Shown here one piece after another: positions 1-28,195 of a stretch of DNA of 35,750 nt (the first letter of the stretch is position 1; every line of letters starts with the position of its first letter). The notes beneath the pieces are model-generated. The model had not been told where the DNA came from. It ran no database searches and was given only the letters and a program-made list of their open reading frames with translations. The position numbers were made by a program, and so were the translations under genes. Origin of the DNA: a virus (lineage: Duplodnaviria; Heunggongvirae; Uroviricota; Caudoviricetes); the IMG/VR virus record IMGVR_UViG_2698536335_000014, positions 1 through 35,750 of that record; one strand, 5' to 3'.

Positions 1-219
1 TCAAAGAGAGAGCGCCACCTGTCCTGATTTCATTGGATGCGGCTGAACCGGATTTGACTCTTTTGGCGTTGCAATCGAACGAACAAAAGTTTCATGGGTA
101 ACAAAAGTATGGCTGCAGTTAATGTTCTGGCACTGGTTGTAACGCTCTTTGGTCAATGAAGATACCTGAAAACTGCTGCGAGTATGGGCGGCACTTCCAC
201 ACAGTGGGCAAATCATCAT
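1..219 (-). CDS. ogr: Ogr/B-family zinc-finger late gene activator
   Basis: 72-aa product from ATG at 219 with SD ggggaga; MMICPLCGSAAH...CQNINCSHTF C4 zinc-finger pattern like P2 Ogr; track ORF starts at an upstream GTG. Confidence 0.8.
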   Translation of the reverse strand: MMICPLCGSAAHTRSSFQVSSLTKERYNQCQNINCSHTFVTHETFVRSIATPKESNPVQPHPMKSGQVALSL

Positions 220-309
220 TTTTCGAGTTCTCCCCATTTTTGCTAAATTCACAATAATGATACCGCATTATTCCATTTTGCAAACTTAAAAGTTCTCCAT
301 TGCGAAGAA

Positions 310-1410
310 TCATTCCATTTCGAAATCATCAATCCTCACTTCAAGCTCCAGACTGGTTGTAAAACCGTTATCGGGGCTGACGGTATGCGTCAGAGTCGTA
401 ATGGTCCATTCCGCATCATCTATCGGCTGTTTAAAGCCACTGACTTTCACTGGCATTTCCGTGTAGAGATCTGCCCGACCTTCTGCCAGTTGTAGCGAGA
501 ATGACGCAACGCCGCGTTGCAGGCGTTCCCACTGCATTTTCGCCGCCCGTTCGGCGTTGCTCCGGTTGGCATAGGTGCGATTAAGTACCAGCACGTTTTC
601 ATCTGTACCCACCAGGTAATCGCCCTGCTTCGCTTCCGGCTCTTTCTTCTGCTTCTTAGTCCTGCGCTTACGCTTCACCGTGGTGCTTTCATTCTTCGCG
701 GGTTCGCGGGTATGCAACCAGCTGGCAATTACGCCCGTGTAGGCTCCGCGATCTGCCAGGGTAAAGCGGTGACTGTCGCCGTCCTTACGTGTGATAGTGA
801 TAACCGGTAGTGGTTTACCGCTGGCGCTTTTACCCTGTCCCTGCCGGATGAATAACAGATTGCCATTTTTCACCGACGCAATAGCACCGTACTGGCGCGC
901 CAGCCGCATCAGAAAACTGCCGTCACTCTCATTGGTCTGGTCTATATGTTCCACGGGTTTATCTGACAGGTCTTTACCCAATGCCATCTTCAGTTTGTGC
1001 CGCACAGCTATTTCCTTCACCACTTCCCCAACGGTGGTCTTGTGCCACGACTTTTCACGGCGGGTATTCAGCGTTTCACGAAAATCAGCACTTCGCGCCC
1101 GGATAGTCAGGCGGTCCGGTGCGCCAGTGTGTTCAATCTCGTCCACCGTGAATGCCCCTTTCGGGAAAAGCGGCTGCCCCTTCCAGCCCAGCGCCAGCGT
1201 AATAACCGCACCACGGCGCGGCAGCACGATTTTTCCGTCGGCGTCGTCCAGCTCCAGATCAAGCTGGTCCGCTTCAAAGCCCCGATTGTCCGTCAGCGTC
1301 AAACTCATCAGGCGGTTATCCAGCACAGTGGTGATATCCCTGCCCTCAATACTGATGCTGAATGCGGGAGTTTTGTTGCCTTTGTTAAGCAGTTCAGAGC
1401 TGAAATTCAT
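310..1410 (-). CDS. D: tail protein gpD
   Basis: 366-aa ORF, ATG start, position between ogr and U as in P2; sequence resembles P2 gpD as I recall it. Confidence 0.85.
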   Translation of the reverse strand: MNFSSELLNKGNKTPAFSISIEGRDITTVLDNRLMSLTLTDNRGFEADQLDLELDDADGKIVLPRRGAVITLALGWKGQPLFPKGAFTVDEIEHTGAPDRLTIRARSADFRETLNTRREKSWHKTTVGEVVKEIAVRHKLKMALGKDLSDKPVEHIDQTNESDGSFLMRLARQYGAIASVKNGNLLFIRQGQGKSASGKPLPVITITRKDGDSHRFTLADRGAYTGVIASWLHTREPAKNESTTVKRKRRTKKQKKEPEAKQGDYLVGTDENVLVLNRTYANRSNAERAAKMQWERLQRGVASFSLQLAEGRADLYTEMPVKVSGFKQPIDDAEWTITTLTHTVSPDNGFTTSLELEVRIDDFEME

Positions 1411-1892
1411 GACAGCAGCCCTCCCACCGTTTTACTGATATCGCTTAAGGCAGACGTTGCTGTGTCCTGCAGATTATTCAGTTGCGCACTGAGATCACCG
1501 AATATATCGGACAGGGATTCATCCACCCGTTTGAGCGACAGGGTGAACTCAATCCGGCGCGGCATACCGTCGCGGAAAAACTCCGTTTTAGTCTGATTCA
1601 GTCCCTCAATCACATACATGCCATAAATCGTGCCACTGCCTTCAATCAGGGGCCATGCTTTCCCCTGTTCTGCCATCTGCTCCAGTGCCAGCAACGACAG
1701 CCTGCCACCTGTTATCTCCGGCATAAGAACACCGGAAAGCGTCAGCATGTCGTTGTCCGGTCCCAGAAACTGCGTGGACGGACGTCGGTTTACCCGGCTG
1801 TTTGCCGCATGTCGCCAGCTGCGTTGATACTGCAGCTCCTGATACGGTACGGTGCGCAGCATAAACACGTACAATCCCAGCACCATCATCAT
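1407..1892 (-). CDS. U: tail protein gpU
   Basis: 161-aa ORF overlapping D start by 4 nt; P2 gpU-like by position and sequence. Confidence 0.85.
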   Translation of the reverse strand: MMMVLGLYVFMLRTVPYQELQYQRSWRHAANSRVNRRPSTQFLGPDNDMLTLSGVLMPEITGGRLSLLALEQMAEQGKAWPLIEGSGTIYGMYVIEGLNQTKTEFFRDGMPRRIEFTLSLKRVDESLSDIFGDLSAQLNNLQDTATSALSDISKTVGGLLS

Positions 1893-4800
1893 GCGTCGTA
1901 TCCCCCCTGATCGCTGTAGTTACTCCTGGCTTTTGCCTTCAGCCTGCGTTCACGTTCATCAAGCTGGCGGGCCACCTCCCGCGCAATATCCTGCGCACTT
2001 TGTCCTGGCTGTGTCTGGATGATGATCTGCGTCGGTGCTTCAATCCGGTAAATGGGCGGCACAGTAGCTGCACGACTCACCATCGCTTCACCGCCTTTTG
2101 CGGGAAGCGCCAAAGGATGCAACGGTGGAAGCTCTGCTGGCGCGGCAGCAACACCCATCATTCCGGCGACAACGGCAGCCAGTGCAGCTGTATTTCTCCG
2201 GCTGGTCACGTTTGCCGGGCCGTTAACAATTTCCGGCCCGTTTTCACCGACGATGCCAAACTGCCCGCGCGGGATATAGCCGCCGCTGTCATACATCCCC
2301 GCAAAGCCATATCCCCATGACGGAAAATCACCCGATGGCATCATCACTTTACCGTCTGCATTCACCGTCGCAGGTTGCTGACGCGTCACGCTTTCCGGCA
2401 GTTTCGCCTTTGCAGCCTCTTTACTGACAATGCCGAGTTTCTCCAGCAACCAGGAAACGCCGGATTTCAGGGAGTCCAGCGGATGCATGACCATATTCAG
2501 CCCTTCTGCCAGTGCCTCCCCGAATCGTCGCCCCATTGCCGCTGCGCTCTGCAGTTCGGCAGAGGTCGACTTAACGGGCGTCAGCAGATCAGTAAACCAG
2601 CCCCACAGCGCCTGCACTTTGTCGCCAATCCACTGGAACACGGGCTTAAGCGGTTCGAACGCTGCACTGATGGGACCTGCCGCCGCTTTGAATCCTTCCA
2701 CCACGCCACCGAGAAATGCGGTGATGGGTTGCCAGTATTTCCAGACAACCAGCGCCACGCCCGCCAGTGCAGTAACCACAAGACCTATCGGACTGAGCAG
2801 AGCACCTAACAGACCAGATATGGCATACAGGGCAACGCGCAGCATCGCCAGTGGACCAGATGCCAGTACTCGCAGCACCGTGCCTGCGGCGGCCAGTCCA
2901 CCGCGCAGTGCCGCCAGAGGATTCATAAACATCACAGCAACAGCACGTAAACCGGATAATCCAGACCGCAAAAGTGCAACCGGCGCACCTGCTACAGTTT
3001 TCAGGACATTTCCCGTCAGTGATGCCGTGCGGCGCAAAGACGACAACGGCGCAGTAAGTAAACCTGCGGCGTTGCCCGATGAAGCAAGCCCGCGTCGCAG
3101 CAGTGCCAGTGGCGCGCCAGCCAGCCAGGACAACGCGCTGCTGGTTCGAGTTACTGCTGTCGTAACGGAAGATAACGTTTTGATACCCAACACAGAGAAT
3201 CCCAGACGGATCACTGCCAGCGGCCCCAGCACTGCAGCCAGCGCCACCGCTAAGGTGCCGAGGCCGACGGTAACCGCAGCCACAACAGCCGATGCTTTCA
3301 TCAGTGTGCCTGTCAGTTCCGGGTTAGCTTCCACCCAGCGACGCAACGCCCCCGTGACGCTTTTCACCGTGTACAGAATATCCATCAGCGGCTGGCGCAG
3401 CGTTTCGCCCAGGCTGCTGAAGGTGTTCTGCGCTCCGGTTTTGACCAGCAACCACTGCGCAGAAAGTGAATCCTTGTTAATGTCGGATTCTTTCTGCATG
3501 GAGCCGAGCGCATCATTGCCCGCTGTCAGTTTTAACTGACGCTGCAGTTCCGGCAGGTTGTTTGCCAGTTTCGCCGCGTCATCGCCAAACTCTTTACCAA
3601 ACAACATAGTCATGGCAGACAGGCGCTTGTCCTGCGGCAGCGCGTTTACCTTCTCCAGCACGCGCTGGATGGTTCCCATCGCATCCTTCGTCATCTGCTT
3701 TTCAATCACTTCAGGATTGAGTTTCAGCAGATTCATCCCTTCAAAGAAACTCTTGCTTTGCATGGTGGCAATGGACAATTCACGCACCATCGCGTTTGCT
3801 GCACTGGCTGCAACCTCTGGCGCAGCGCCCAGTGTCAGGAAGGTGGAACCCAGCGCCGCCGCTTTACGATAATCCAGACGGTCAGCCACACCGCCCAGAC
3901 GTTGCATCACATCAATGATGTCTGCCCCTTTCGACATGGCGTTATCATCCAGATAGTTCAGCGCATCACCGAGCTGTTCAATATTGCGGGTGGGGATTTT
4001 GTAGAGCTGGGCGATTTTCCCCAGACTTTCTGACAGTTCATCCGCTGGCAGCTCAAAGGCTGTTGCCGCCTTTGCTGCCGTACTGGCGAAGGCCAGCAGG
4101 TCACGTTTCTGATCTTCCCAGCTGTCGTCAGGGTTTGCGACGTTCATGCGCGCACCACCTTCAACCAGTGCAGCGAAGTCCACCGCACCGTTTTCCATTG
4201 GCAACTGTTCGCTGGCAGCCTTGATGGCATCCTGCATTTCATAAAAACGTGCAGTGCGGTTGCCATTATCGTCACGCAGACCATTGACCTGCTTTGCCAC
4301 ACCTTTCATGGCATCTTCCATGCTGGTATAGCTTTTTACTGCCGCCATCACTGGCGCACCCATTGCCAGCCCTGCAGCCGTGGTGGTGGCTCCGGCACCT
4401 GCAATACGATCACGCACCTCCAGCGAACGGGCATAACTGGCACGCGCTGCATTCATCCTGCGCTGAGCTTCCCCCAGTCGCTTCAGCCGCGCCTCCTGTT
4501 TCGAAAGTTCCTGGTTATAACGTGATGTTTCACGGGCTAAACGGGCAGTTGCTCCCGCATCGTCTTTCGCAGAAATTCCCGCCCGGTACAGTTCAGCACG
4601 CACAAGCGCCGTCTGCTGCTGCAGCTTTTTCTGGCGTTCTTCCAGGCGCTGAACAGCCAGCCGTTGACGGCCCAGAGCAACAACCTGACGTTGCGAAGGC
4701 GGCCCCATCGCTCCCAGTTCCTGACTGAGCAAATTTGCACGCTGGCGGGCATAGTTCAGCCTGTCGCCTAATTTCTGATTTTCTGCCTGCAGCTTTCGGA

Positions 4801-4966
4801 AGCTGTCCAGACTGCTCCCGGCCTGATCAAGCTGCTTTATTGCATCGCGGGATTTTTTGACAGCAGCAGCCAGTTCTCTTGAACTGGCCTGTGCAGATCG
4901 AAATGGGCGGGTGAGCTTGTCAACCGCATTAAGAATGACCTGCAGACGCAGGTTGTTATCACTCAT
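1889..4966 (-). CDS. T: tail tape measure protein gpT
   Basis: 1025-aa ORF with coiled-coil N-terminus and Ala/Gly/Leu-rich hydrophobic segments; directly downstream of E/E'. Confidence 0.9.
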   Translation of the reverse strand: MSDNNLRLQVILNAVDKLTRPFRSAQASSRELAAAVKKSRDAIKQLDQAGSSLDSFRKLQAENQKLGDRLNYARQRANLLSQELGAMGPPSQRQVVALGRQRLAVQRLEERQKKLQQQTALVRAELYRAGISAKDDAGATARLARETSRYNQELSKQEARLKRLGEAQRRMNAARASYARSLEVRDRIAGAGATTTAAGLAMGAPVMAAVKSYTSMEDAMKGVAKQVNGLRDDNGNRTARFYEMQDAIKAASEQLPMENGAVDFAALVEGGARMNVANPDDSWEDQKRDLLAFASTAAKAATAFELPADELSESLGKIAQLYKIPTRNIEQLGDALNYLDDNAMSKGADIIDVMQRLGGVADRLDYRKAAALGSTFLTLGAAPEVAASAANAMVRELSIATMQSKSFFEGMNLLKLNPEVIEKQMTKDAMGTIQRVLEKVNALPQDKRLSAMTMLFGKEFGDDAAKLANNLPELQRQLKLTAGNDALGSMQKESDINKDSLSAQWLLVKTGAQNTFSSLGETLRQPLMDILYTVKSVTGALRRWVEANPELTGTLMKASAVVAAVTVGLGTLAVALAAVLGPLAVIRLGFSVLGIKTLSSVTTAVTRTSSALSWLAGAPLALLRRGLASSGNAAGLLTAPLSSLRRTASLTGNVLKTVAGAPVALLRSGLSGLRAVAVMFMNPLAALRGGLAAAGTVLRVLASGPLAMLRVALYAISGLLGALLSPIGLVVTALAGVALVVWKYWQPITAFLGGVVEGFKAAAGPISAAFEPLKPVFQWIGDKVQALWGWFTDLLTPVKSTSAELQSAAAMGRRFGEALAEGLNMVMHPLDSLKSGVSWLLEKLGIVSKEAAKAKLPESVTRQQPATVNADGKVMMPSGDFPSWGYGFAGMYDSGGYIPRGQFGIVGENGPEIVNGPANVTSRRNTAALAAVVAGMMGVAAAPAELPPLHPLALPAKGGEAMVSRAATVPPIYRIEAPTQIIIQTQPGQSAQDIAREVARQLDERERRLKAKARSNYSDQGGYDA

Positions 4967-5395
4967 CGTTGGCCCCGCTTCTCTGAATCGCTTTATACCG
5001 CCATTCCAGCACTTCGGTCAGCGGCATAACGTCAGTAACGGATGGCGGCCAGTGAAAAATGGTGGCGATATCTGCCACCAGATCGTCAACCGTCAGGCTG
5101 TCGGTAAACCGGCAAGCACCGACTTCTTCAACAAAAAAGTGACAACCTCAACCGACATGGCAGTGAGATCTGCCGGGTCCATCTCTGCAATTTCCTGTGC
5201 AGTCAGTGCCGGACTGGAGATGCGGGGGATCACGGTCATCATCGCGTTTACATCCATATCCATAATGGCCTGCAGGCGTGTACCGCGCAGCGCACCGGAC
5301 TGCGGTTTACGCAGCACAATTTCGGTGATTTCTGTTTTACCGCGCTTGATGGGGGTATCCAGTTGAATGGTCTTTTCAGTCTGCTTATCGCTCAT
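4959..5395 (-). CDS. gpE+E' -1 programmed frameshift product (tail assembly chaperone)
   Basis: After a -1 slip at the TTTTTTG heptamer (minus strand, plus coords 5133-5139) the frame stays open to a TGA at 4959-4961, overlapping the T start codon, as in P2 E/E' and lambda G/GT. Confidence 0.6.
5093..5395 (-). CDS. E: tail assembly chaperone gpE
   Basis: 100-aa ORF upstream of T; contains slippery heptamer T-TTT-TTG in frame. Confidence 0.85.
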   Translation of the reverse strand: MSDKQTEKTIQLDTPIKRGKTEITEIVLRKPQSGALRGTRLQAIMDMDVNAMMTVIPRISSPALTAQEIAEMDPADLTAMSVEVVTFLLKKSVLAGLPTA

Positions 5396-5974: not shown

Positions 5975-7147
5975 TTACGCGCTGACCTGGCTGGCGAAAT
6001 TCACCAGGTACTGATCGGTGATGCGCTGACGCAGCATCAGGTTTTCAAGTGGCGGCACTGGCGTGTAGTCGTAGTCGATGGTGAGTTTTCCGGCTTTCAG
6101 CGTGTCTTTGTCGTTCACCGACTCATCCAGCCAGCAATCACCACCAATGAGATAGCCCTGACTGACCAGGCTGCGCATTTTGGCGCGGATACCTTCGATA
6201 ATGTCGCGGGCCAGCGACGGGTTAAGCGGTTTATCCACCGCCCACATGTGTGCTTCTGCCATCGTGTCCATCAGCACCTGCGCCGTGCGGGTGTAGTTTT
6301 CGAAGGCAAAGAGCGGGTCATCACTCAGGCAGCGGGAACCCCAGAAGCGGAAACCGTCTTTACGCACAAGCGTGGTGACGTCGTTCTGGTTCAGCAGACC
6401 TGCATCGGTTGCCGGGTCCTGCAGATCCCAGAACACATCTGCAGAAATTCCGGTGACACCGTTCACGCCCACGTTGGACAGGCTTTTGTGCCATCCGGTC
6501 TGCTCGTCAATTTTGGCGCGCAGACCAAGCGCACGGGCGGTGGTATATGCCGTTGCTTCGGCATTCAGCACCGTGTCCCAGCCAGTAAAGTCAGGCCAGA
6601 TCAGCATCCCTTCGCGCTGGCTGAAGTTTTCGCGGTAAGTGATCGCCTCCTGCACTGTCTTGCAGCCATACGCTGACAGGTAAGCAAATCCACGCAGGCT
6701 TTGCGCCACGCTTAGCAACTCAGTAGCTACCGCCTTGGTGTCGTGGCCTGGCACGCCGAGAATGCGCGGTTTAACGCCGAGCTGTGACTGGGCAGATAAC
6801 AGGGCTTTCATACCTGTTTTTTTACCTTCAGCAGTCACTGCGCCGATGATATTGGTCGTGGTTTCGTCTTCCGTTTCACCCTGCGGCACACGCACAACAA
6901 TGGTCACGGGTTTTGCCTGGTCAGCGATGGCATCCAGCGAACGGGCCAGAGTACCTGACTCACCCGCTTTACCGCTGGCAGTCAGCACATCAGTGATCAG
7001 CACGGGTTTATTAAGAGGAAACATTTTTGCATCGGCATCATCGCCCGTGCAGACCATACCCACGATGGCGGTGCTCACCGTGGTAATGGATCGAGTGCCT
7101 TCGTTGACTTCAACAACGCGCACCCCGTGGTGGTAATCCTGAGCCAT
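5975..7147 (-). CDS. FI: contractile tail sheath protein gpFI
   Basis: 390-aa ORF, ATG start, P2 FI-like. Confidence 0.9.
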
Positions 7148-7223
7148 AGTGGCGAACCTCCTGATTGGATTAGGCTTCGCCCTATGTTGAAGTGATTGTG
7201 CCTGACAAACAGCTAAGCGCAGT

Positions 7224-7241
7224 TGTACCGTTATTCACACA
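7224..7241 (-). promoter_or_regulatory. candidate Ogr-dependent late promoter element upstream of FI (TGT-N12-ACA)
   Basis: TGTACCGTTATTCACACA centred about 85 bp upstream of the FI ATG; near-identical to the element upstream of O (TGTACCGACAACCACACA). Confidence 0.5.
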
Positions 7242-7289
7242 AAATGACGGTATTTGTCTGCTTTCAGGGATAATCAAAATAAAGCTGAT

Positions 7290-7862
7290 TCAGGGAGATT
7301 TATTGCTCTTATTTGCCGGAAATTTTCGATAAATGGTAGAAACGCCTACATCAAAAATCAGTGCAATACGCTGTCTTGATTCTCCGGCCTCGAGTAAACG
7401 CCCAATCTGTGCCCACTGTTCGCTGGTCAACTTAGGACGGCGTCCACCTACTCTGCCCTTAGCACGAGCTGCAGCCAGCCCCGCCCTGGTACGTTCAACT
7501 ATCAGTTCGCGTTCCATTTCAGCCAGGGCACCCATGACATGAAAAAAGAAACGGCCCATTGGGGTGCTGGTATCAATACTGTCAGTCAGGCTTCGGAAAT
7601 TCACGCCACGCTGGCGCAGCTCTTCTATCAGCGTAACAAGATGCCGCATACTGCGCCCCAGTCTGTCCAGCTTCCAGACAACCAGCGTGTCTCCTGCCGA
7701 TAGTGTCCTGAGCAGCTTTTTCAGCCCCGGTCTGTCGGACTTGGTGCCACTGATTTTATCCTCAAAAATCCGCTCACATCCCGCACAGTTCAGTGCATTG
7801 CGTTGCAAATCGGTGTTCTGGTCATTTGTTGACACGCGTACATAGCCAATAAGCATGATCAT
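7290..7862 (-). CDS. serine DNA invertase (Hin/Gin/Cin/Pin family), copy 1
   Basis: 190 aa; N-terminal resolvase catalytic domain (GYVRVSTNDQ with catalytic Ser) and C-terminal HTH; ATG start. Confidence 0.9.
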   Translation of the reverse strand: MIMLIGYVRVSTNDQNTDLQRNALNCAGCERIFEDKISGTKSDRPGLKKLLRTLSAGDTLVVWKLDRLGRSMRHLVTLIEELRQRGVNFRSLTDSIDTSTPMGRFFFHVMGALAEMERELIVERTRAGLAAARAKGRVGGRRPKLTSEQWAQIGRLLEAGESRQRIALIFDVGVSTIYRKFPANKSNKSP

Positions 7863-7911
7863 CCCCCTGAATAAAAACCGGAGATGATGCCAGTTAGCCG
7901 TTATCTCTGCA

Positions 7912-7937
7912 TTTTCATAAACGTTGGTTTGGGAGAA
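7912..7937. other. invertase crossover site 1 (hix/gix/cix-like)
   Basis: TTTTCATAAACGTTGGTTTGGGAGAA, about 50 bp upstream of the invertase start; inverted relative to sites 2 and 3; imperfect dyad of the TTCTCCTAAACCAAGG type. Confidence 0.6.
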
Positions 7938-8285
7938 GCGGCGAAAAGGGATGTGGGCACAGGAGAAAATCAGATACCGGATATGTCATCCTGGAAAAGA
8001 AATCCGAGTTCTAATCGCTGGAGAAAATTGCCTGATGGAACCATCATTCAAATGGGAATATCAGCATCAGGGCCATTAGGCTCACCTGTAAATATCACCC
8101 TGCCGATATCTTTCAGCAATACCAATTATTGTGTTGTTGCATCGTACGATAATGCACGGTCAGGTGTGTCAACAATGGTTAGTTTTGCAGCATTACCTGT
8201 TTCACCATCGCAATTTTCCCTGATGTCATCTGTGACTGAGCAAGGAATAAATCCTTTTGCTTACTGGATTGCTTTTGGAGATTGA
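7938..8285 (+). CDS. alternative tail-fibre C-terminal variable segment (Sv'-like), no start of its own
   Basis: Open frame runs through site 1 (..GLGE|AAKRD..) in the same phase as H at site 3 (..GLGE|GSALP..); it would fuse to the H constant part after inversion. Confidence 0.55.
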   Translation, partial: AAKRDVGTGENQIPDMSSWKRNPSSNRWRKLPDGTIIQMGISASGPLGSPVNITLPISFSNTNYCVVASYDNARSGVSTMVSFAALPVSPSQFSLMSSVTEQGINPFAYWIAFGD

Positions 8286-8288
8286 TAA

Positions 8289-8708
8289 ATGGACAGATAC
8301 TTCTATTCACAAAAAGAAAATGGTTTTTTTACCGATTTAAATAAAGCACCTTCAGATGCTGTTGAGATAACCACGGATGAATGGCTGTCACTACTGGATG
8401 GTCAGGATAATGGCATGAAAATAGTCAGCAATCAGGAGGGATATCCGGTTTTGACAGAGCAACCACCTTTATCAAAAGAAAACCTTATTGCATTGGCAGA
8501 GTTGAAAAAAGGAAAACTTATTAATGAAGCCAACGAGCACATGAACAGCAGGCAATGGCCTGGTAAAGCGGCTATTGGTCGTCTGAAAGGTGAGGAACTG
8601 GCGCAATATAATTTGTGGCTGGATTATCTGGACGCACTGGAACTGGTTGATACCTCCAGTGCTCCAGATATTGAATGGCCTACGCCTCCGGCAGTTCAGG
8701 CCAGATGA
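8289..8708 (+). CDS. tail fibre assembly protein (U'/G-like), partner of the alternative fibre segment
   Basis: 139 aa; C-terminal motif (DTSSAPDIEWPTPP) shared with the convergent chaperone ORF at 8680-9282; ATG start 4 nt after the Sv' stop. Confidence 0.75.
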   Translation: MDRYFYSQKENGFFTDLNKAPSDAVEITTDEWLSLLDGQDNGMKIVSNQEGYPVLTEQPPLSKENLIALAELKKGKLINEANEHMNSRQWPGKAAIGRLKGEELAQYNLWLDYLDALELVDTSSAPDIEWPTPPAVQAR

Positions 8709-9282
8709 CATCCGGCGCGGTGCTGGTATCTGTTGCCGTCACCGCGTCAATGTAATCCAGCACGGCGTTAAGTCTGGTTGTTTCTGCCTGCGTCAGTTTA
8801 CGTCCGGCCTGTAATTTCAGCTGAATCAGACTAATGGAAGCCATTGCTGCATCAATCAGTGACTGGCGCTGTGCTTCTGCCGCGTCTACTGCGGCACTAT
8901 GCTGTGCCTCAGTATCTGTCACCCATTTCTCACCATCCCATTTATCGTATGGCGTTAACGGGACGATAGTGGTTGTATTTTCAGGGTAATCACCCGGAGC
9001 TGTGATTTCTTTTGATTCTCCCGTTTCGGTGTTATAGACAACTTCACCGCGATGGTCTGGCACATATTCCCATGAGTTAAAATCTGCAGAACGGCAGATT
9101 GCATAACCAGCTTTATGTGTAACTGGTGCATCTAAACAAGAACATGCCGGGATACCGACGCCAACCGCAAGATATTCAGTTGATGTGGAAATATATTCCC
9201 GCGTTTCACCATCATAATTATAAATGGTAATGTCTCCCGCTTTTATGGCAATGAGTTCGTTATTTAATACGGCTTTATTCAT
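8680..9282 (-). CDS. G: tail fibre assembly protein (gpG/U-like), full length
   Basis: 200 aa; ATG overlaps the stop of the upstream variable segment (TGATG); 3' end converges on and overlaps U'. Confidence 0.8.
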   Translation of the reverse strand: MNKAVLNNELIAIKAGDITIYNYDGETREYISTSTEYLAVGVGIPACSCLDAPVTHKAGYAICRSADFNSWEYVPDHRGEVVYNTETGESKEITAPGDYPENTTTIVPLTPYDKWDGEKWVTDTEAQHSAAVDAAEAQRQSLIDAAMASISLIQLKLQAGRKLTQAETTRLNAVLDYIDAVTATDTSTAPDVIWPELPEA

Positions 9283-9779
9283 CAGGCAGCTCTCACGATA
9301 TAATTAAAGGCAATGTTACGAGGACGGTTTTCGTTTGCAGTTGGAACAATTCTTGAAGCATCAAGGCCAATCACTTTTGGGTAAACAGCGCCATCTGTTC
9401 TTTCAGTCACCATACTTCTGATTAAGGAGAAATAACTATTGTTCGTTGAGGGATTCAAAGGCACCACTGCCCCCTTAAACGAGCCTACTGATTCCCATAT
9501 TGAATAATTTTCGGTGTTTACAGTCTTGAACTCACCATAGATATTACGTATGGCATCGCCCTGAGCGGATAATATTGCCCTCCCCGTATCCATACCACGT
9601 CCGTCATCCCAGCCACGAATAAACTCACCACGTAAATCAGGCAATTTATTTGTCGGGTAAGCCTTTGCCAGTTCTGGGTATTCTTCAGCAGAAAAAGCTG
9701 CTCCGTTGCATTTTAGCCAGCCTGTTGGCGGAGTGGCTGAGGGCCACGGAACAGGTACGCCAACAGGCAATGCTGAGCC
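9282..9779 (-). CDS. tail-fibre C-terminal variable segment A, copy inside the invertible segment (no start of its own)
   Basis: Identical to the C-terminal 166 aa of H (10979-12538); bounded upstream by site 2. Confidence 0.6.
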   Translation of the reverse strand, partial: GSALPVGVPVPWPSATPPTGWLKCNGAAFSAEEYPELAKAYPTNKLPDLRGEFIRGWDDGRGMDTGRAILSAQGDAIRNIYGEFKTVNTENYSIWESVGSFKGAVVPLNPSTNNSYFSLIRSMVTERTDGAVYPKVIGLDASRIVPTANENRPRNIAFNYIVRAA

Positions 9780-9805
9780 TTCTCCTAAACCAACGTTTAT
9801 GAAAA
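9780..9805. other. invertase crossover site 2
   Basis: TTCTCCTAAACCAACGTTTATGAAAA; its reverse complement matches site 1 except for one base. Confidence 0.6.
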
Positions 9806-9854
9806 TGCAGAGATAACGGCTAACTGGCATCATCTCCGGTTTTTATTCAGGGGG

Positions 9855-10427
9855 ATGATCATGCTTATTGGCTATGTACGCGTGTCAACAAATGACCAGA
9901 ACACCGATTTGCAACGCAATGCACTGAACTGTGCGGGATGTGAGCGGATTTTTGAGGATAAAATCAGTGGCACCAAGTCCGACAGACCGGGGCTGAAAAA
10001 GCTGCTCAGGACACTATCGGCAGGAGACACGCTGGTTGTCTGGAAGCTGGACAGACTGGGGCGCAGTATGCGGCATCTTGTTACGCTGATAGAAGAGCTG
10101 CGCCAGCGTGGCGTGAATTTCCGAAGCCTGACTGACAGTATTGATACCAGCACCCCAATGGGCCGTTTCTTTTTTCATGTCATGGGTGCCCTGGCTGAAA
10201 TGGAACGCGAACTGATAGTTGAACGTACCAGGGCGGGGCTGGCTGCAGCTCGTGCTAAGGGCAGAGTAGGTGGACGCCGTCCTAAGTTGACCAGCGAACA
10301 GTGGGCACAGATTGGGCGTTTACTCGAGGCCGGAGAATCAAGACAGCGTATTGCACTGATTTTTGATGTAGGCGTTTCTACCATTTATCGAAAATTTCCG
10401 GCAAATAAGAGCAATAAATCTCCCTGA
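9855..10427 (+). CDS. serine DNA invertase, copy 2 (protein identical to copy 1)
   Basis: 190-aa product identical to the 7290-7862 ORF; lies in the inverted duplication. Confidence 0.85.
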   Translation: MIMLIGYVRVSTNDQNTDLQRNALNCAGCERIFEDKISGTKSDRPGLKKLLRTLSAGDTLVVWKLDRLGRSMRHLVTLIEELRQRGVNFRSLTDSIDTSTPMGRFFFHVMGALAEMERELIVERTRAGLAAARAKGRVGGRRPKLTSEQWAQIGRLLEAGESRQRIALIFDVGVSTIYRKFPANKSNKSP

Positions 10428-10569
10428 ATCAGCTTTATTTTGATTATCCCTGAAAGCAGACAAATACCGTCATTTTGTGTGAATAACGGTACAACTGCGC
10501 TTAGCTGTTTGTCAGGCACAATCACTTCAACATAGGGCGAAGCCTAATCCAATCAGGAGGTTCGCCACT

Positions 10570-10691
10570 ATGGCTCAGGATTACCACCACGGGGTGCGCG
10601 TTGTTGAAGTCAACGAAGGCACTCGATCCATTACCACGGTGAGCACCGCCATCGTGGGTATGGTCTGCACGGGCGATGATGCCGATGCAAA
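10570..10691 (+). pseudogene. duplicated 5' fragment of FI (first ~40 codons, [17 protein letters not shown]...), truncated
   Basis: Exact inverted copy of the FI start region; ends at a breakpoint at 10691/10692. Confidence 0.75.
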
Positions 10692-10979
10692 CGGAGCTGT
10701 GATTTCTTTTGATTCTCCCGTTTCGGTGTTATAGACAACTTCACCGCGATGGTCTGGCACATATTCCCATGAGTTAAAATCTGCAGAACGGCAGATTGCA
10801 TAACCAGCTTTATGTGTAACTGGTGCATCTAAACAAGAACATGCCGGGATACCGACGCCAACCGCAAGATATTCAGTTGATGTGGAAATATATTCCCGCG
10901 TTTCACCATCATAATTATAAATGGTAATGTCTCCCGCTTTTATGGCAATGAGTTCGTTATTTAATACGGCTTTATTCAT
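10581..10979 (-). pseudogene. chimeric ORF: tail fibre assembly protein N-terminal 96 codons fused to antisense of the FI fragment
   Basis: Protein matches U through ..ESKEITAP, then reads through the breakpoint into sequence antisense to FI. Confidence 0.7.
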
Positions 10980-11502
10980 CAGGCAGCTCTCACGATATAA
11001 TTAAAGGCAATGTTACGAGGACGGTTTTCGTTTGCAGTTGGAACAATTCTTGAAGCATCAAGGCCAATCACTTTTGGGTAAACAGCGCCATCTGTTCTTT
11101 CAGTCACCATACTTCTGATTAAGGAGAAATAACTATTGTTCGTTGAGGGATTCAAAGGCACCACTGCCCCCTTAAACGAGCCTACTGATTCCCATATTGA
11201 ATAATTTTCGGTGTTTACAGTCTTGAACTCACCATAGATATTACGTATGGCATCGCCCTGAGCGGATAATATTGCCCTCCCCGTATCCATACCACGTCCG
11301 TCATCCCAGCCACGAATAAACTCACCACGTAAATCAGGCAATTTATTTGTCGGGTAAGCCTTTGCCAGTTCTGGGTATTCTTCAGCAGAAAAAGCTGCTC
11401 CGTTGCATTTTAGCCAGCCTGTTGGCGGAGTGGCTGAGGGCCACGGAACAGGTACGCCAACAGGCAATGCTGAGCCTTCTCCTAAACCAAGGTATGCGAG
11501 AA
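10692..11502. repeat. direct repeat copy 2 (U 5' part + variable segment A of H + site 3 half)
   Basis: Duplicate of 8995-9805. Confidence 0.8.
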
Positions 11503-12538
11503 GACCAGCTACATCCTTTCCACTCAAATTAGTCAGCGTATTGTCCAGCGGTTGTTTACCTGCCAGTGCATTAAGCATTGTCGTGGCAAAGTTCGGGTCA
11601 TTCCCCAGCGCCGCCGCCAGTTCGTTCAGTGTATCCAGTGCCGCAGGTGCAGAACCCACCATTGCCGCAATCGCCGATTTCACAAAAGCCGTAGTGGCAA
11701 TCTGTGTATTGTTGACCGACTGCGCCGCCGTGGGGGCTGTTGGCGTTCCGGTGAGTGCCGGACTCAACAGCGGCGCTTTCAGTGCCAGCGCATTATTAAT
11801 GGTGGTACTGAATTTCGGATCATTGTTAATGGCTACGGCTATTTCTTTCAGCGTGTCCAGCGTGGCTGGCGCACCATTAATAATAGCCGTCAGTGCAGCC
11901 TGAACAAACTCGGTGGTCGCAATCTGCGTGGTGTTATTCCCTGCTGCTGGCGTTGGCGCTTTGGGTGTCCCGGTAAACGTCGGACTTTCTTTGGGTGCAT
12001 ACTGTGAATGCGGGTCCGGTGCGGCAAGATGTTTTGCCATCTGATCATCCGCGTACACCTTCAGCTCCAGTGCCTTGTCATCCACATACTTGCGGGTTGC
12101 CAGCACTACAGCAGGGTCGATTTTCAGGGTGATATTGTCCGTGCTGCTGGTAATCAGCACCATGCGCACGGTCTGAGTGCGCCCGCTACCTTCAGCCAGT
12201 TGCGGCTTATAGCTTTCCGGGCAGTTGCCCACGGCAATCAATGCCCCGGACTCATCAAACAAGCCCACTTCACGTATCCACCAACCGCCCTCGTTTTCAG
12301 GGATCACCTGTTCGGCAATAATCTGACTGCTGTTCTGCGGGTCGATATAGAGCATATTCAGCGCAGCCCGGCGTTTCTCATTTACCAGTGCAGTCTGCTT
12401 TGAGTCTGGCGTTGGCAATACTCCGCCGCCATCGCCGACCGCCATATGGGTAATTTTTAGCGGCACACCGAGCGCGGCGGCGCTGGCAAGTTTCGCCGCG
12501 CCAATATCCGTCAGCAGGGTATAAAATTTTGTGCTCAT
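10979..12538 (-). CDS. H: tail fibre protein gpH (constant N-terminal part fused to variable segment A)
   Basis: 519 aa; N-terminus MSTKFYTLLTDIGAAKLA..MAVGDGGG resembles P2 gpH as I recall it; crossover site 3 lies inside the ORF at the constant/variable junction. Confidence 0.9.
   Translation of the reverse strand: MSTKFYTLLTDIGAAKLASAAALGVPLKITHMAVGDGGGVLPTPDSKQTALVNEKRRAALNMLYIDPQNSSQIIAEQVIPENEGGWWIREVGLFDESGALIAVGNCPESYKPQLAEGSGRTQTVRMVLITSSTDNITLKIDPAVVLATRKYVDDKALELKVYADDQMAKHLAAPDPHSQYAPKESPTFTGTPKAPTPAAGNNTTQIATTEFVQAALTAIINGAPATLDTLKEIAVAINNDPKFSTTINNALALKAPLLSPALTGTPTAPTAAQSVNNTQIATTAFVKSAIAAMVGSAPAALDTLNELAAALGNDPNFATTMLNALAGKQPLDNTLTNLSGKDVAGLLAYLGLGEGSALPVGVPVPWPSATPPTGWLKCNGAAFSAEEYPELAKAYPTNKLPDLRGEFIRGWDDGRGMDTGRAILSAQGDAIRNIYGEFKTVNTENYSIWESVGSFKGAVVPLNPSTNNSYFSLIRSMVTERTDGAVYPKVIGLDASRIVPTANENRPRNIAFNYIVRAA
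11477..11502. other. invertase crossover site 3, inside H at the constant/variable boundary
   Basis: TTCTCCTAAACCAAGGTATGCGAGAA; left half identical to site 2 and in the same orientation. Confidence 0.6.
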
Positions 12539-18275: not shown

Positions 18276-18926
18276 TCAGCGGCTGTCATTGCGCAGTCTG
18301 CGCTCCAGCTGCTGTTTGTCTTTTTTCACGCCACAGCGGGGATCGAGCTGTAACGCATGGTTGAGATGATTAAGGGCGGAAGCCGGATTTCTTTCACTCA
18401 GGACAGCGCCAATCGCTTTATGCAGACGTGCCCGTGACTGGTCCGGCATATCCAGACCGTCTGTCAGCTCCAGCGTCTGCAGCAACAGATCAGCATCAAA
18501 GCCGGTGGCGGCAAGCATTGCGCTCTGCGCCGCGTCTGCCATTTCCTCAGCCAGCACGGTCTGCACGTTGCGGTTACCCAACGGCATCACCCAGCCATGA
18601 CGCAGGGCGTGACGCCCGATCTCCAGCGCCCCGGCATAATCTCCGGCATCAATGCGCCACAGCATCACGTACATCAGCACGTCATCCTGTTGAGCGCCTC
18701 CGCCAGCCAGGACACCCTCTGCCCAGGCGGCGTATTTCGGCAGCAGTTCCACCTTGATTTCCGCTTTTTTGACCGTGGACTGAACGCCCTTGAGACGGCG
18801 GCGGTCTTCCGCCAGTTGCAGCAGCATCAGGTCATAGCCCGACGCGTGGCGAACGCTGCCGCCTTCACGGGCGGCCTGTTCAGCCTGAACGCGCAGGCGA
18901 TGCTGCCGTGCGGGACTCAGGCTCAT
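18276..18926 (-). CDS. M: terminase small/endonuclease subunit gpM
   Basis: 216 aa, ATG start, P2 gpM-like by position and sequence. Confidence 0.8.
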   Translation of the reverse strand: MSLSPARQHRLRVQAEQAAREGGSVRHASGYDLMLLQLAEDRRRLKGVQSTVKKAEIKVELLPKYAAWAEGVLAGGGAQQDDVLMYVMLWRIDAGDYAGALEIGRHALRHGWVMPLGNRNVQTVLAEEMADAAQSAMLAATGFDADLLLQTLELTDGLDMPDQSRARLHKAIGAVLSERNPASALNHLNHALQLDPRCGVKKDKQQLERRLRNDSR

Positions 18927-18929
18927 GGG

Positions 18930-19988
18930 TTACGCTCCGACTTCTGCTGCGGCGGCGCTGAAATCGCCAATCTGGATGTTTTCCACCAGTGCAGCGCAGC
19001 GGTAGTCCTCAACCACATAGGCTTCGTTAACAGATTCAAAGTTTTCAATCCGGTCACGTTTCGGGTTGTCGATAACTGAACGGCGGCGGGTGTCTTCCTG
19101 CCAGTAGATGGACAAGTTATCCCGACGGGTGATCAGCAGCGCATTCGGCGGGAAGAACGGCGCACGCACGGCCTGCAGACCGCCCATGCGTTTCTGACTG
19201 ATGATCATATCGGCAGCCAGTTTTTCACTGTTTTCCTGCTCTTTGTTGACCAGCGGGAAATACTTGTCAGACAGCAGTTCACGACCGCAAATCACCACCA
19301 GATCGTCATCGTCCTGGTAGACCACATCGATAAGCTCATTGACGGCATCCATCACTACGGCGTCCAGGTTGGCATATTCGCCACCTTTCCCGACTTTCAC
19401 CGCGCCCGGAGTGGTTTCATCGCCCGTGGTGGTGCTGCCCATGACGTGATCCGGTGCATCCTCACGGATTTTCTGCAGCCAGCCTTTGTTTACATCCTGC
19501 AGCAGCGGGTTTTCACTACGGTTGGAGGTTTTCGCACGCTTCACGCCGTTAAAGCCGATCATGATGCGGTCCAGTGCCTGACGTTTCACGATGGCGTCAC
19601 GGATGCGCACCTGGAAATCCTGAAACTTCGCCCACAGGTCCAGCTTCGCGTAGGTCAGCACCGTGTCAAAGTTGGTCTGCTCGCATTTATATTCCACATC
19701 AACCATCAGCGTCGGATCGACAGGCTCACGCTCTTTCGCGGTGGTGTCAGTGGTTCCGGCAATGGTGCTGCCAACACCCAGCCCCAGCAACTGACCAGAC
19801 TGCTCAGTCACTGGCGTGACGTTAATCAGCGTCAGGAAAGCGGCGGACTGCTGGATCTGGTCTTCCAGCGTCTGCTGTACAGACGGCTCTACAGTGAACT
19901 TGCTGGACAGTTCTTCAACTGCTACACCGTTCAGACGCGCCAGCTGCTGCAGGTAAGCGTTAAAAGCAAAGCGGGTATTCTTCTTCAT
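18930..19988 (-). CDS. N: major capsid protein gpN
   Basis: 352 aa; long stretches resemble P2 gpN as I recall it (e.g. RFAFNAYL, KGWLQK). Confidence 0.9.
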   Translation of the reverse strand: MKKNTRFAFNAYLQQLARLNGVAVEELSSKFTVEPSVQQTLEDQIQQSAAFLTLINVTPVTEQSGQLLGLGVGSTIAGTTDTTAKEREPVDPTLMVDVEYKCEQTNFDTVLTYAKLDLWAKFQDFQVRIRDAIVKRQALDRIMIGFNGVKRAKTSNRSENPLLQDVNKGWLQKIREDAPDHVMGSTTTGDETTPGAVKVGKGGEYANLDAVVMDAVNELIDVVYQDDDDLVVICGRELLSDKYFPLVNKEQENSEKLAADMIISQKRMGGLQAVRAPFFPPNALLITRRDNLSIYWQEDTRRRSVIDNPKRDRIENFESVNEAYVVEDYRCAALVENIQIGDFSAAAAEVGA

Positions 19989-20004
19989 CGGGTTTTGTGC
20001 TCCA

Positions 20005-20838
20005 TCAGCAATTGGTCAGAGTGTCAGCGGGGGCGTTACCGCCTGTTGCACGCTGGCGGTAGTCCTGGCGGCTGTCTTCATGACTCAGCTTATTCACCAG
20101 TTCATTAAAGGCGGTTTGCTGCTTCTGCAGAGCAGACTCCAGTTCAGACAGGCGTTCTTCCTGCTCAGACAGAGATTTTTCGGTTCGCGCGCTCAGGTTT
20201 TGCTGCTCAGTGGCGACCAGCTCCACGGCCTTATGCACATCAGAGAACCGGGCGTCATCGGACTGCTCTTTTTTGGTGAACAGCGCCGTGACGCGGGAAA
20301 ACAGGGACGGTTTGTCATCCTGGATTTCTTCCAGTTCGATCACCGTTTCCTCTGCAGCGGTAAAAAGATTGGCGGGATTCTGCTTGCGGTTTGCCAGCGG
20401 GTTATGGGCTGTACTGGCGCTGAATGTCAGCATTTCCGTACCCAGACTGGCTGGATCATCAGTGGCGGCCAGGCCAACCAGGTAGGCTTTACCCGTATCA
20501 GCAAACTTCGGGCTGACTTCCATAGAGGTGAATAATTTCTGGCCTTTTTTCACCAGCTCCACCAGGGATTCCGTTGGCTCAACGTCGGCATACAGCGCCA
20601 TCTTGCCCGCCAGCGGACCTTCCGTGATTTCTTCAGCAAACAGCGCAGTCACCTTGCCGTAGCGGTTAAAGGTGCTGTCCGGCAGATAAGACTTGATGTG
20701 CTCAAGGTTAATCAGAGCGGTATACACCGCCGGGTTGTAGCTGGCTGCCATCTGTTCCAGCCATTCACGCTGGATTTCGCGTCCGTCGGTGGTGGCACCT
20801 TCCACCCCGATGCGAAAACGCTTTGCTTTCACTGTCAT
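20005..20838 (-). CDS. O: capsid scaffold protein gpO
   Basis: 277 aa, ATG start, first gene of the leftward late operon, divergent from P. Confidence 0.9.
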   Translation of the reverse strand: MTVKAKRFRIGVEGATTDGREIQREWLEQMAASYNPAVYTALINLEHIKSYLPDSTFNRYGKVTALFAEEITEGPLAGKMALYADVEPTESLVELVKKGQKLFTSMEVSPKFADTGKAYLVGLAATDDPASLGTEMLTFSASTAHNPLANRKQNPANLFTAAEETVIELEEIQDDKPSLFSRVTALFTKKEQSDDARFSDVHKAVELVATEQQNLSARTEKSLSEQEERLSELESALQKQQTAFNELVNKLSHEDSRQDYRQRATGGNAPADTLTNC

Positions 20839-20916
20839 GAGCCGTGCTCCGTTAGAAAAAACTTACTGGAGCCTTATGGTTGCGGTGATGGGGGCAGTGA
20901 AACAATGCGCGGTATT

Positions 20917-20934
20917 TGTACCGACAACCACACA
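20917..20934. promoter_or_regulatory. candidate Ogr-dependent late promoter element in the O/P divergent region
   Basis: TGTACCGACAACCACACA (TGT-N12-ACA), about 87 bp upstream of the O ATG. Confidence 0.45.
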
Positions 20935-20980
20935 AACCGCAGGCGGGGAAAGCCTTCATTCAAGGCTGTAGGTTTGTGCC

Positions 20981-22747
20981 ATGAACACCACACTGACACC
21001 CGCAGATCTCGATCCCCGTCGGCAGGCCATGCTGCTGTACTTTCAGGGATACCGCGTAGCCCGCATTGCTGAAATGCTGGGCGAGAAAGTTGCAACCGTT
21101 CACAGCTGGAAAAAACGCGACAAGTGGGGTGACTATGGGCCGCTGGATCAGATGCAGCTCACCACTGCCGCACGCTACTGCCAGCTCATTATGAAGGAGC
21201 ACAAAGAAGGGAAAGATTTCAAAGAGATTGACCTGCTGGCGCGCCAGTCGGAGCGCCATGCGCGGATCGGCAAGTTTAACAATGGCGGCAACGAAGCCGA
21301 CTTAAACCCTAACGTCGCCAACCGCAACAAAGGCCCGCGCCGTCAGCCGGAAAAGAACGTTTTCACCGATGAACAGATTGAGAAGCTGGAAGAAATCTTC
21401 CATTCCTCCATGTTCAACTACCAGCGCCACTGGTGGGAAGCCGGAAAAACCAACCGCATCCGCAACCTGCTGAAGTCACGCCAGATCGGCGCGACCTTCT
21501 ATTTTGCCCGTGAAGCCCTGATTGACGCCCTGCTAACCGGGCGTAACCAGATTTTCCTTTCCGCCAGCAAGGCTCAGGCCCACGTCTTTAAGCAGTACAT
21601 CATCGACTTCGCCAAAGAAGTGGAGGTGGAGCTGAAAGGCGATCCGATGGTGCTTCCTAACGGGGCCACGCTGTACTTCCTCGGCACCAATGCCCGCACG
21701 GCCCAGAGTTACCACGGCAACCTGTATCTGGATGAATATTTCTGGATACCGAAATTCCAGGAGCTGCGCAAAGTGGCTTCCGGTATGGCTATTCACAAAA
21801 AATGGCGACAAACCTATTTTTCCACGCCATCCAGCCTGACACACAGTGCTTATCCGTTCTGGTCCGGTGCGCTGTTCAACCGAGGGCGCAACAAAGCCGA
21901 TAAGGTGGACATCGACCTGTCCCACAGCAATCTGGCCCCCGGCCTGCTGTGCGCAGACGGGCAATACCGCCAGATAGTCACCGTGGAAGATGCGGTGCGC
22001 GGCGGCTGTAACCTGTTCGACCTCGACCAGTTGCGCATGGAGTACAGCCCGGACGAATACCAGAACCTGCTGATGTGTGAGTTCGTGGACGATCTCGCGT
22101 CCGTGTTCCCGCTCAGCGAGCTGCAGGCGTGTATGGTGGACAGTTGGGAAGTCTGGACCGACTTTCATGCACTGGCCCTGCGCCCGTTTGGCTGGCGCGA
22201 GGTGTGGATCGGTTATGACCCGGCAAAAGGTACGCAGAACGGCGACAGCGCCGGATGCGTGGTGATGGCACCGCCAGCCGTGCCAGGCGGTAAGTTTCGC
22301 ATTCTTGAGCGTCACCAGTGGCGCGGGATGGACTTCCGCGCCCAGGCTGACGCCATCAAAAAACTGACCGAACAGTACAACGTGACCTATATCGGCATCG
22401 ACTCAACAGGTGTCGGTCACGGGGTTTACGAGAACGTGAAAGCGTTCTTTCCTGCCGTCCGGGAGTTTGTCTACAACCCCAACGTTAAAAACGCCCTGGT
22501 ACTCAAAGCCTACGACATTATCAGTCACCGTCGTCTGGAGTTTGACGCCGGACACACCGACATAGCGCAGTCATTTATGGCAATCCGTCGCGCCACCACC
22601 GCCAGTGGCAACCGCCCGACCTATGAAGCCAGCCGCAGCGAAGAAGCCAGCCACGCCGATCTGGCCTGGGCAACGATGCACGCACTGTTTAACGAACCGC
22701 TGCAGGGCGAGTCCGCCAATACCAGCAATATTGTGGAGATTTTTTGA
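20981..22747 (+). CDS. P: terminase large (ATPase) subunit gpP
   Basis: 588 aa, ATG start; P2 gpP-like. Confidence 0.9.
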   Translation: MNTTLTPADLDPRRQAMLLYFQGYRVARIAEMLGEKVATVHSWKKRDKWGDYGPLDQMQLTTAARYCQLIMKEHKEGKDFKEIDLLARQSERHARIGKFNNGGNEADLNPNVANRNKGPRRQPEKNVFTDEQIEKLEEIFHSSMFNYQRHWWEAGKTNRIRNLLKSRQIGATFYFAREALIDALLTGRNQIFLSASKAQAHVFKQYIIDFAKEVEVELKGDPMVLPNGATLYFLGTNARTAQSYHGNLYLDEYFWIPKFQELRKVASGMAIHKKWRQTYFSTPSSLTHSAYPFWSGALFNRGRNKADKVDIDLSHSNLAPGLLCADGQYRQIVTVEDAVRGGCNLFDLDQLRMEYSPDEYQNLLMCEFVDDLASVFPLSELQACMVDSWEVWTDFHALALRPFGWREVWIGYDPAKGTQNGDSAGCVVMAPPAVPGGKFRILERHQWRGMDFRAQADAIKKLTEQYNVTYIGIDSTGVGHGVYENVKAFFPAVREFVYNPNVKNALVLKAYDIISHRRLEFDAGHTDIAQSFMAIRRATTASGNRPTYEASRSEEASHADLAWATMHALFNEPLQGESANTSNIVEIF

Positions 22748-23784
22748 TGGGAAAGAGTAAGAAAAACCGCGCTGCGGCGACGAATCAGCTCAAGCATAAA
22801 AGCCAGACTTCAGCCGAAGCATTCAGCTTCGGTGATCCCGTTCCTGTACTTGACCGCCGCGAACTGCTGGACTATGTGGAATGCGTACAGACAGATCGCT
22901 GGTATGAGCCTCCTGTCAGCTTTGACGGACTGGCGCGCACCTTCCGCGCTGCCGTGCATCACAGTTCACCAATTGCGGTGAAATGCAACATTCTGACCAG
23001 CACCTACATCCCTCACCCGCTGCTCAGCCAGCAGGCTTTTTCGCGTTTTGTACAGGACTATCTGGTTTTTGGTAACGCCTACCTGGAAAAACGCACGAAC
23101 CGCTTCGGAGAGGTCATCGCTCTTGAGCCTGCGCTGGCAAAATACACCCGACGCGGGTTAGACCTGGATACCTACTGGTTTGTGCAATATGGTATGACAA
23201 CCCAGCCGTATCAGTTCACGAAAGGCAGCATCTTTCATCTGTTGGAACCGGACATCAACCAGGAGATCTACGGCCTGCCCGGTTATCTTTCTGCCATTCC
23301 GTCCGCTCTGCTCAACGAGTCCGCCACGCTGTTCCGCCGGAAGTATTACATTAACGGTAGTCATGCAGGCTTCATCATGTACATGACCGATGCCGCGCAA
23401 AACCAGGAGGATGTGAACAACCTCCGCAACGCAATGAAAAGCGCCAAAGGTCCAGGCAACTTCCGCAACTTGTTTATGTACTCGCCTAACGGTAAAAAAG
23501 ACGGGCTTCAGATCATCCCATTGTCAGAAGTCGCGGCGAAGGATGAATTTCTTAACATCAAGAACGTGAGTCGGGATGACATGATGGCAGCGCATCGCGT
23601 GCCGCCGCAAATGATGGGGATTATGCCTAATAATGTCGGGGGGTTTGGGGATGTGGAAAAAGCCGCTCGCGTTTTTGTACGTAACGAACTGCAGCCATTG
23701 CAGAAACGTATGTGCGAACTGAACGAATGGATTGAGGAAAAAGTAATAAATTTTGAAGCGTATCAGCTCTCAATTGAGCAATAA
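22747..23784 (+). CDS. Q: portal protein gpQ
   Basis: ATG at 22747 overlaps the P stop (TGATG); track ORF starts at TTG 22744; P2 gpQ-like. Confidence 0.9.
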   Translation: MGKSKKNRAAATNQLKHKSQTSAEAFSFGDPVPVLDRRELLDYVECVQTDRWYEPPVSFDGLARTFRAAVHHSSPIAVKCNILTSTYIPHPLLSQQAFSRFVQDYLVFGNAYLEKRTNRFGEVIALEPALAKYTRRGLDLDTYWFVQYGMTTQPYQFTKGSIFHLLEPDINQEIYGLPGYLSAIPSALLNESATLFRRKYYINGSHAGFIMYMTDAAQNQEDVNNLRNAMKSAKGPGNFRNLFMYSPNGKKDGLQIIPLSEVAAKDEFLNIKNVSRDDMMAAHRVPPQMMGIMPNNVGGFGDVEKAARVFVRNELQPLQKRMCELNEWIEEKVINFEAYQLSIEQ

Positions 23785-23818
23785 CTCTCAAATAGCTGAA
23801 TAAGCCCGCAAAAGCTAA

Positions 23819-23840
23819 CCTATAGATCAGGGTCTATAGG
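23819..23840. terminator. candidate bidirectional hairpin terminator between convergent Q and the cargo operon
   Basis: cctataga-tcaggg-tctatagg: 8-bp perfect stem, 6-nt loop, followed by TTTAT; overlaps the stop codon of the 215-aa ORF. Confidence 0.35.
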
Positions 23841-24895: not shown

Positions 24896-24907
24896 TTTTG
24901 TCTCCAG

Positions 24908-26014: not shown

Positions 26015-26157
26015 CTTAATTACCTGTTGAAATTGCAACACAAGGTCGTCTTCGGGAGATCAATGGGAGTATTCCAATAACTTACCCAGGTATAGGAGTG
26101 CTTTCAAGTCTAAGACTATCTTCTGTCTAACAGCGCATGTTTTCATCTAAGCGCGCG

Positions 26158-27102: not shown

Positions 27103-27125
27103 TCCTTAATGGTTGCAGAAGAAAG

Positions 27126-28185: not shown

Positions 28186-28195
28186 AAAAGTCACC

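Follow-up and report, generated by a model that had tools for sequence, protein, structure and literature searches.

A breakpoint reported in the invertible tail-fibre locus of a P2-like E. coli prophage falls on a placeholder base and most probably is not real

Inversion switches of the Din family (Hin, Gin, Cin and Pin) are described from the G segment of phage Mu, the C segment of P1, the P segment of e14 and the P2-like phage 500465-1. The locus analysed here has the same parts: a serine invertase beside the segment, crossover sites of 26 bp that are inverted and laid out 12-2-12, a fibre N-terminus kept constant outside the segment, and a choice of two fibre C-termini that each come with their own Tfa chaperone. 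Multiple-inversion systems, such as Min of plasmid p15B and the R64 shufflon, are conserved in nature and have several different fibre or pilin modules; the R64 shufflon uses a tyrosine recombinase.

Duplications that exist only in assemblies form a separate body of knowledge. Where a gap separates the members of a duplicated pair on one scaffold, this is a recognised hallmark of false duplication and, in the ‘heterotype’ class of eukaryotic assemblies, two versions of a locus stand side by side with a gap between them (PMC9516828). Tools that extend gap edges work from both sides and close the gap only on an overlap of at least 10 nt, and scaffolding and gap-filling tools have been called greedy and liable to make false joins (PMC3446322; PMC5320598). 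Majority-rule extension stalls at repeat boundaries where alternatives occur in equal ratio, leaving gaps open (PMC3446322).

A P2-like prophage of E. coli makes up the stretch of DNA analysed (35,750 nt, hereafter the window), and its source record is contig CXZX01000009.1 (137,329 bp) of the draft assembly GCA_001277675.1. This record was found through an exact look-up of the tail-fibre protein H, and its gene order, double invertase included, is identical to that of the window. The region in question belongs to the tail-gene block, which reads on the minus strand, and comprises the following features.

5975–7147, minus strand: FI tail sheath gene, intact, 390 aa (Pfam Phage_sheath_1, Phage_sheath_1C and Gp18_domIII_N)
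7290–7862, minus strand: serine DNA invertase, native copy, 190-aa ORF (Pfam matches on the identical protein at 9855–10427)
7884–8285, plus strand: Hv', alternative tail-fibre C-terminal module, 133-aa ORF (Pfam Gp53-like_C)
7912–7937: crossover site s1, TTTTCATAAACG-TT-GGTTTGGGAGAA, invertase-side half plus segment half
8289–8708, plus strand: Tfa', cognate tail-fibre assembly chaperone, 139 aa (Pfam Caudo_TAP)
8680–9282, minus strand: tail-fibre assembly chaperone, intact, U/G-type, 200 aa (Pfam Caudo_TAP, residues 78–199)
9282–9833, minus strand: Hv tail-fibre C-terminal module in flipped-state context, 183-aa ORF (Pfam Collar)
9780–9805: crossover site s2, TTCTCCTAAACC-AA-CGTTTATGAAAA, segment half of s3 joined through the core to the invertase-side half of s1 in reverse complement
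9794–10690, plus strand: inverted second copy of 7027–7923, 100% complementary to the native copy
9855–10427, plus strand: second invertase copy, protein identical to the native copy
10570–10689, plus strand: FI start, 40 codons, part of the inverted copy
10691: placeholder base at a probably unclosed join, ‘A’ in the window and ‘N’ in CXZX01000009.1
10692–11490, minus strand: direct second copy of 8995–9793, 799 nt, 100% identical, offset 1697
10979–12538, minus strand: tail-fibre gene H, 519 aa (Pfam Phage_tail_fib and Collar)
11477–11502: crossover site s3, TTCTCCTAAACC-AA-GGTATGCGAGAA, segment half plus constant-H half

The domain content is that of a two-state fibre switch. The invertase matches Pfam Resolvase (2.4e-53) and HTH_7 (5.8e-16) in the copy at 9855–10427, and relatives also carry it beside the sheath gene, in the same position. 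H consists of the constant N-terminal part fused to the Hv module. The two opposed modules are a Collar domain with the 200-aa Caudo_TAP protein and a Gp53-like_C domain with the 139-aa Caudo_TAP protein. Hv' is silent in the orientation found in the window and is fused to constant H in flipped-state relatives, where the proteins reach 468–469 aa. The three sites, each of 26 bp, have the common 12-2-12 layout; s1 and s3 stand in inverted orientation at the ends of the invertible segment, inside the fibre gene, and s2 is a recombinant form. Judged by its half-sites, s2 is the normal flipped-state junction, exactly what the invertase would make when the segment flips. Invertase domains, inverted crossover sites, two fibre tips with their chaperones and the occurrence of both orientations in nature are all found here, and without the 1,697 extra bp the locus is an ordinary Hin/Gin/Cin/Pin-type switch of P2-like phages. 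In this collapsed form its layout is collinear with that of phage 500465-1 and of sibling prophages that are ∼97–99.9% identical across the locus.

The extra 1,697 bp consist of an inverted copy of 7026–7925 (the FI 5' end and the invertase) followed by a direct copy of 8995–9793. Their left end is s2. The inverted duplicate at 9779–10691 matches 7026–7938 over 913 nt with one mismatch, 7931 (G) against 9786 (T), which falls inside a crossover half-site; 7027–7930 and 9787–10690 are perfect inverted copies. It thereby contains, in 9794–10690, the second invertase (9855–10427), the FI upstream region and FI codons 1–40 (10570–10689). The direct copy holds chaperone codons 1–96, the 5' part of the 200-aa chaperone gene recurring at 10692–10979, and the Hv module as far as the crossover core. 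This truncated chaperone copy has lost the Caudo_TAP domain (residues 78–199 of the intact protein) and has no Pfam match. As for the 183-aa Hv ORF at 9282–9833, it is without a constant part, and an identical 183-aa product adjoins the invertase in many normal flipped-state genomes.

At 10691/10692 the two copies meet within FI codon 41 on one side and after codon 96 of the 200-aa chaperone gene on the other, in agreement with a preliminary description that had the inverted duplicate stopping about 40 codons into FI and joining chaperone codon 96. It is the only non-canonical join; the window otherwise contains an unflipped left junction, a reversed flipped left junction and an unflipped right junction. 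For this join, the earlier statement that crossover-site sequence is missing and that the invertase did not make it is borne out. The 1 bp of microhomology that had been counted there disappears when contexts are compared: FI reads ...GCAAA/AATG, the chaperone gene ...CACC/CGGAG and the junction ...GCAAA/CGGAG, which leaves 0 bp, and position 10691 is in addition a placeholder base. Two ORFs cross the break, one of 132 aa (10581–10979, minus strand) and one of 54 aa (10570–10734, plus strand). The 132-aa chimeric ORF pointed out earlier is therefore present in the window, but it depends on the placeholder base.

Comparison with the source record bears directly on this base. Over the range compared (window 2979–35750), all bases agree with CXZX01000009.1 except 10691, where the window has ‘A’ and the contig, at its position 45955, has ‘N’; the surrounding contig sequence reads ...GATGCCGATGCAANCGGAGCTG.... 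The difference at 10691 is the single one between 2979 and 20538, and a second stretch of the contig, covering window 18538–35750 and, beyond it, 5.2 kb of flanking DNA of E. coli type (glyS, glyQ, ysaB, yiaH and yiaA/B), has 0 N and 0 mismatches. The sole N in ∼38 kb of the contig thus coincides with the reported breakpoint, whereas the chance of a single N in ∼38 kb landing there is ∼1 in 40,000. As supplied, the window contains no N anywhere along its length while the record has one, so that the N appears to have been replaced by ‘A’ during preparation of the window. The public gene table of the record calls a 54-aa gene across the N and no 132-aa gene, and an exact look-up of the 54-aa and 132-aa junction translations of the window found neither on record. 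Since a 54-aa gene is called across the N and yet the window's translation of it is absent, the N is present in the indexed record. An N exactly at the breakpoint implies that the join was never sequenced through, and the 10691/10692 junction is not confirmed as a sequenced object. This is what a junction unspanned by reads, the outcome that the preliminary description itself had named as counting against its claim, would predict.

Related phages and prophages (their loci are numbered L001 onwards) have the normal gene order, sheath, invertase, Hv', Tfa', Tfa and H, as found in Escherichia phage 500465-1 and Klebsiella phage KP12. Both segment orientations are observed, the unflipped state in L001 and L005 and the flipped state in L008, L011, L013, L017, L019 and L020, and many genomes, both draft and complete, normally have the flipped arrangement, with an identical, silent 183-aa module beside the invertase. 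Proteins identical to H occur in the normally arranged loci L004 and L005, and both loci are single-copy. L005 is 99.8–99.9% identical to the window throughout, and L004 is 99.9% identical from the tail genes through the segment and 97.4% identical through H and the genes beyond. The preliminary description raised the question of whether related genomes carry the same junction, and none of the collections searched does. The queries were a 200-nt stretch, a 28-mer and a pattern with a gap; no place in 5,426 complete E. coli genomes or in 50,697 phage records covered both junction halves, and neither exact nor gapped patterns found the junction in GTDB species genomes, IMG/VR or JGI metagenomes. 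Among 5.8 billion protein clusters no protein spans the junction; the matches cover only the first 96 residues, that is the chaperone part, and the one match with 99% coverage of the chimeric protein (P0017) has an unrelated tail.

Several relatives show changes of their own at or near this locus. Relative to the window, L004 (GCA_012342255.1, AASHHO010000034.1) has two deletions, 3603–5019 and 7446–8161. The former, of 1.4 kb, lies inside the tape-measure gene; the latter takes out 715 bp and with them the N-terminus of the invertase, s1 and the beginning of Hv', so that the tail-fibre switch of L004 is locked in the unflipped state. In L018 (CP044257.1, locus 7569–11048, a complete genome), what follows the P2-type invertible segment is not constant H but a second invertase, of resolvase type, together with a gene for flagellin and a Flag1_repress (fljA-like) gene, an arrangement that may reflect recombination between two different invertase systems. 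In L010 (GCA_018044205.1, ABACMX010000021.1, locus 1–3500) and L016 (CP020835.1), early-region prophage genes (DUF2732, Fil, CP76-type and methyltransferase) directly adjoin the invertible segment or baseplate genes that are truncated; either the DNA has been extensively rearranged or deleted, or the same locus has again been misassembled.

Outside the tail block, the portal and replication genes are separated by a block of cargo genes, at 23820–26041 and 26458–27764. P2-like phages usually carry accessory or defence genes at this location. The first part (minus strand) consists of three consecutive genes of 215, 142 and 377 aa for which no Pfam or PADLOC match was found. The second part encodes a HAD-type hydrolase (214 aa) and a Nudix protein (212 aa), the latter with a weak match to the candidate defence family PDC-S07 (6.6e-10). 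At the end of the window (34620–35750, together with L012 1–6255), the prophage adjoins yiaA/B-yiaH-ysaB-glyQS, with the integrase at that end, whereas the close relatives L008–L011 adjoin ybjL-ybjM-grxA; the differing flanks indicate that the lineage uses different integration sites.

Collectively, these data make it probable that the breakpoint is an unclosed join of two contig ends in a draft assembly, with a false duplication beside the gap. The serine invertase flips the 1.87-kb segment (∼7926–9791) between its 26-bp sites, and the sequenced culture would have been mixed, with both segment orientations present. The sequence on the left would leave the segment through the flipped-state junction and run ∼900 bp backwards through the invertase into the FI start; that on the right would begin ∼800 bp inside the unflipped segment and go on into H. 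A scaffolder or gap-filler would then have set the two ends side by side, leaving a single N between them, and preparation of the window would have converted that N to ‘A’. What results would be a false duplication of 1,697 bp, with an extra copy of the invertase and a pair of ORFs existing only on paper. The N at the join, the exact repeats, the match of s2 to the flipped-state junction and the two orientations in relatives are observations, from which we infer the mixed culture and the assembly step responsible. In favour of an artefact, the sequence on either side of the N recurs with 100% identity <4 kb away, the junction was found in one assembly only, and relatives ∼97–99.9% identical across the locus are single-copy.

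The likeness to heterotype false duplications is close: two versions of a locus again stand side by side with a gap between them. Here the versions would be the two orientations of an invertible segment, and the copies are identical to neighbouring sequence. Unlike in eukaryotes, the heterogeneity would come from site-specific inversion in a clonal culture and not from two haplotypes, which accounts for one duplicated block being inverted, and the gap is a single N, unlike the gaps of eukaryotic false duplications.

Some points do not sit easily with an assembly artefact, and the main rival, a real 1.7-kb tandem duplication followed by programmed inversion, draws on them; it is a possible reading, although clearly the less probable. 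Simple gap-filling would need a gap estimate of ∼1.7 kb where the pieces should adjoin, which is not obviously expected, and reads of the flipped state must win one extension and reads of the unflipped state the other. Stalls exactly at 7026/7027 and 8995 are natural if these are true repeat boundaries, as a real duplication would make them, and homology boundaries among E. coli genomes show no clear pile-up of alignment ends at 7026 or 8995 that could explain the contig ends (a single match, H217, ends at 8995). In the duplication route, 1,697 bp would have been tandemly duplicated by illegitimate recombination while the segment was flipped, the block extending from FI codon 41 across the invertase gene and the crossover site to chaperone codon 96. 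The invertase would then have inverted everything between the outermost sites, giving the order seen in the window, and the assembler would have rebuilt both copies but stalled at the novel joint, with a 50:50 branch for each extension, leaving the N. A simulation of these two steps from a collapsed 34,053-bp ancestor (flipping the segment, tandemly duplicating 1,697 bp composed of 7026–7925 and the reverse complement of 8995–9791, and inverting between the outer sites) gives all 35,750 bases of the window. A single non-homologous joint suffices, the half-site polymorphism (7931 G against 9786 T) is distributed as the route predicts, and the ending of both extensions exactly at the joint is explained. 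What weighs against this history is that its joint is an N in the source record and hence without sequence support, that a k-mer assembler normally passes a real joint by means of spanning reads, that the joint occurs in no other genome or protein collection searched, and that the perfect identity of both copies gives no sign of age.

Explanations in a single step fare far worse. Illegitimate recombination or template switching, producing an inverted duplication in an unflipped prophage with no part played by the invertase, would fit the lack of crossover-site sequence and the 0 bp of homology at 10691/10692, but it is very improbable: a direct inverted duplication would take two novel joints, whereas only one is novel. 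The other joint, 9792/9793, lies exactly on the 2-bp core of a 26-bp site, which chance would not produce, and is the normal flipped-state junction of many genomes; the N at the join speaks against this event as well. Slighter still is the probability of an in-vitro chimera from library preparation or amplification that was taken into the consensus. Amplification chimeras typically join pieces of one neighbourhood, and both sides of the join do come from the same 4-kb neighbourhood, but a chimeric read yields a called base and not an N, and lone chimeric reads are usually outvoted in the consensus. Two further candidates were rejected by reasoning: a PacBio fold-back from a missed adapter, because the join is not a symmetric palindrome and has the polarity of a tandem duplication in the flipped state, and intermolecular recombination by the invertase, because 10691/10692 has no site sequence. 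Under every explanation, heterogeneity generated by the invertase is essential to the structure. Of the three origins proposed in the preliminary description (illegitimate recombination, template switching and an assembly chimera), the last is the one that fits the N, and the other two are disfavoured; its contrast with invertase action overlooked the other end of the duplicate, where 9780–9805 is the exact crossover junction expected of the flipped state. Its observation is confirmed in part and its interpretation supported in part.

A breakpoint that is probably an unclosed assembly join, and most probably not a real feature, carries a caution for the reading of raw sequence: once a single N had silently become a base, the breakpoint looked convincing and came with a chimeric ORF and a count of microhomology. 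When raw sequence is scanned, the positions of N should be kept alongside it, and invertible segments, which are heterogeneous in any culture, are likely spots for false duplications in draft assemblies. Were the duplication real, the third crossover site and second invertase gene would turn a two-state switch into a four-isomer system. A real duplication across the crossover site, giving such a tail-fibre system, is a tentative prospect, with a likelihood well short of that of the artefact. As written, the window has three sites and could switch among four isomers, a likeness to the multi-site systems of Min of p15B and the R64 shufflon that holds only if the duplication is real; unlike their modules, the extra module here is a truncated copy of identical sequence, attached by way of an N and found in one assembly only. 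Two of the isomers would express normal fibres, and the other two would place the truncated chaperone and a second copy of the FI promoter facing into H. Such a locus would then show one way in which simple inversion systems could give rise to multi-site ones such as Min of p15B.
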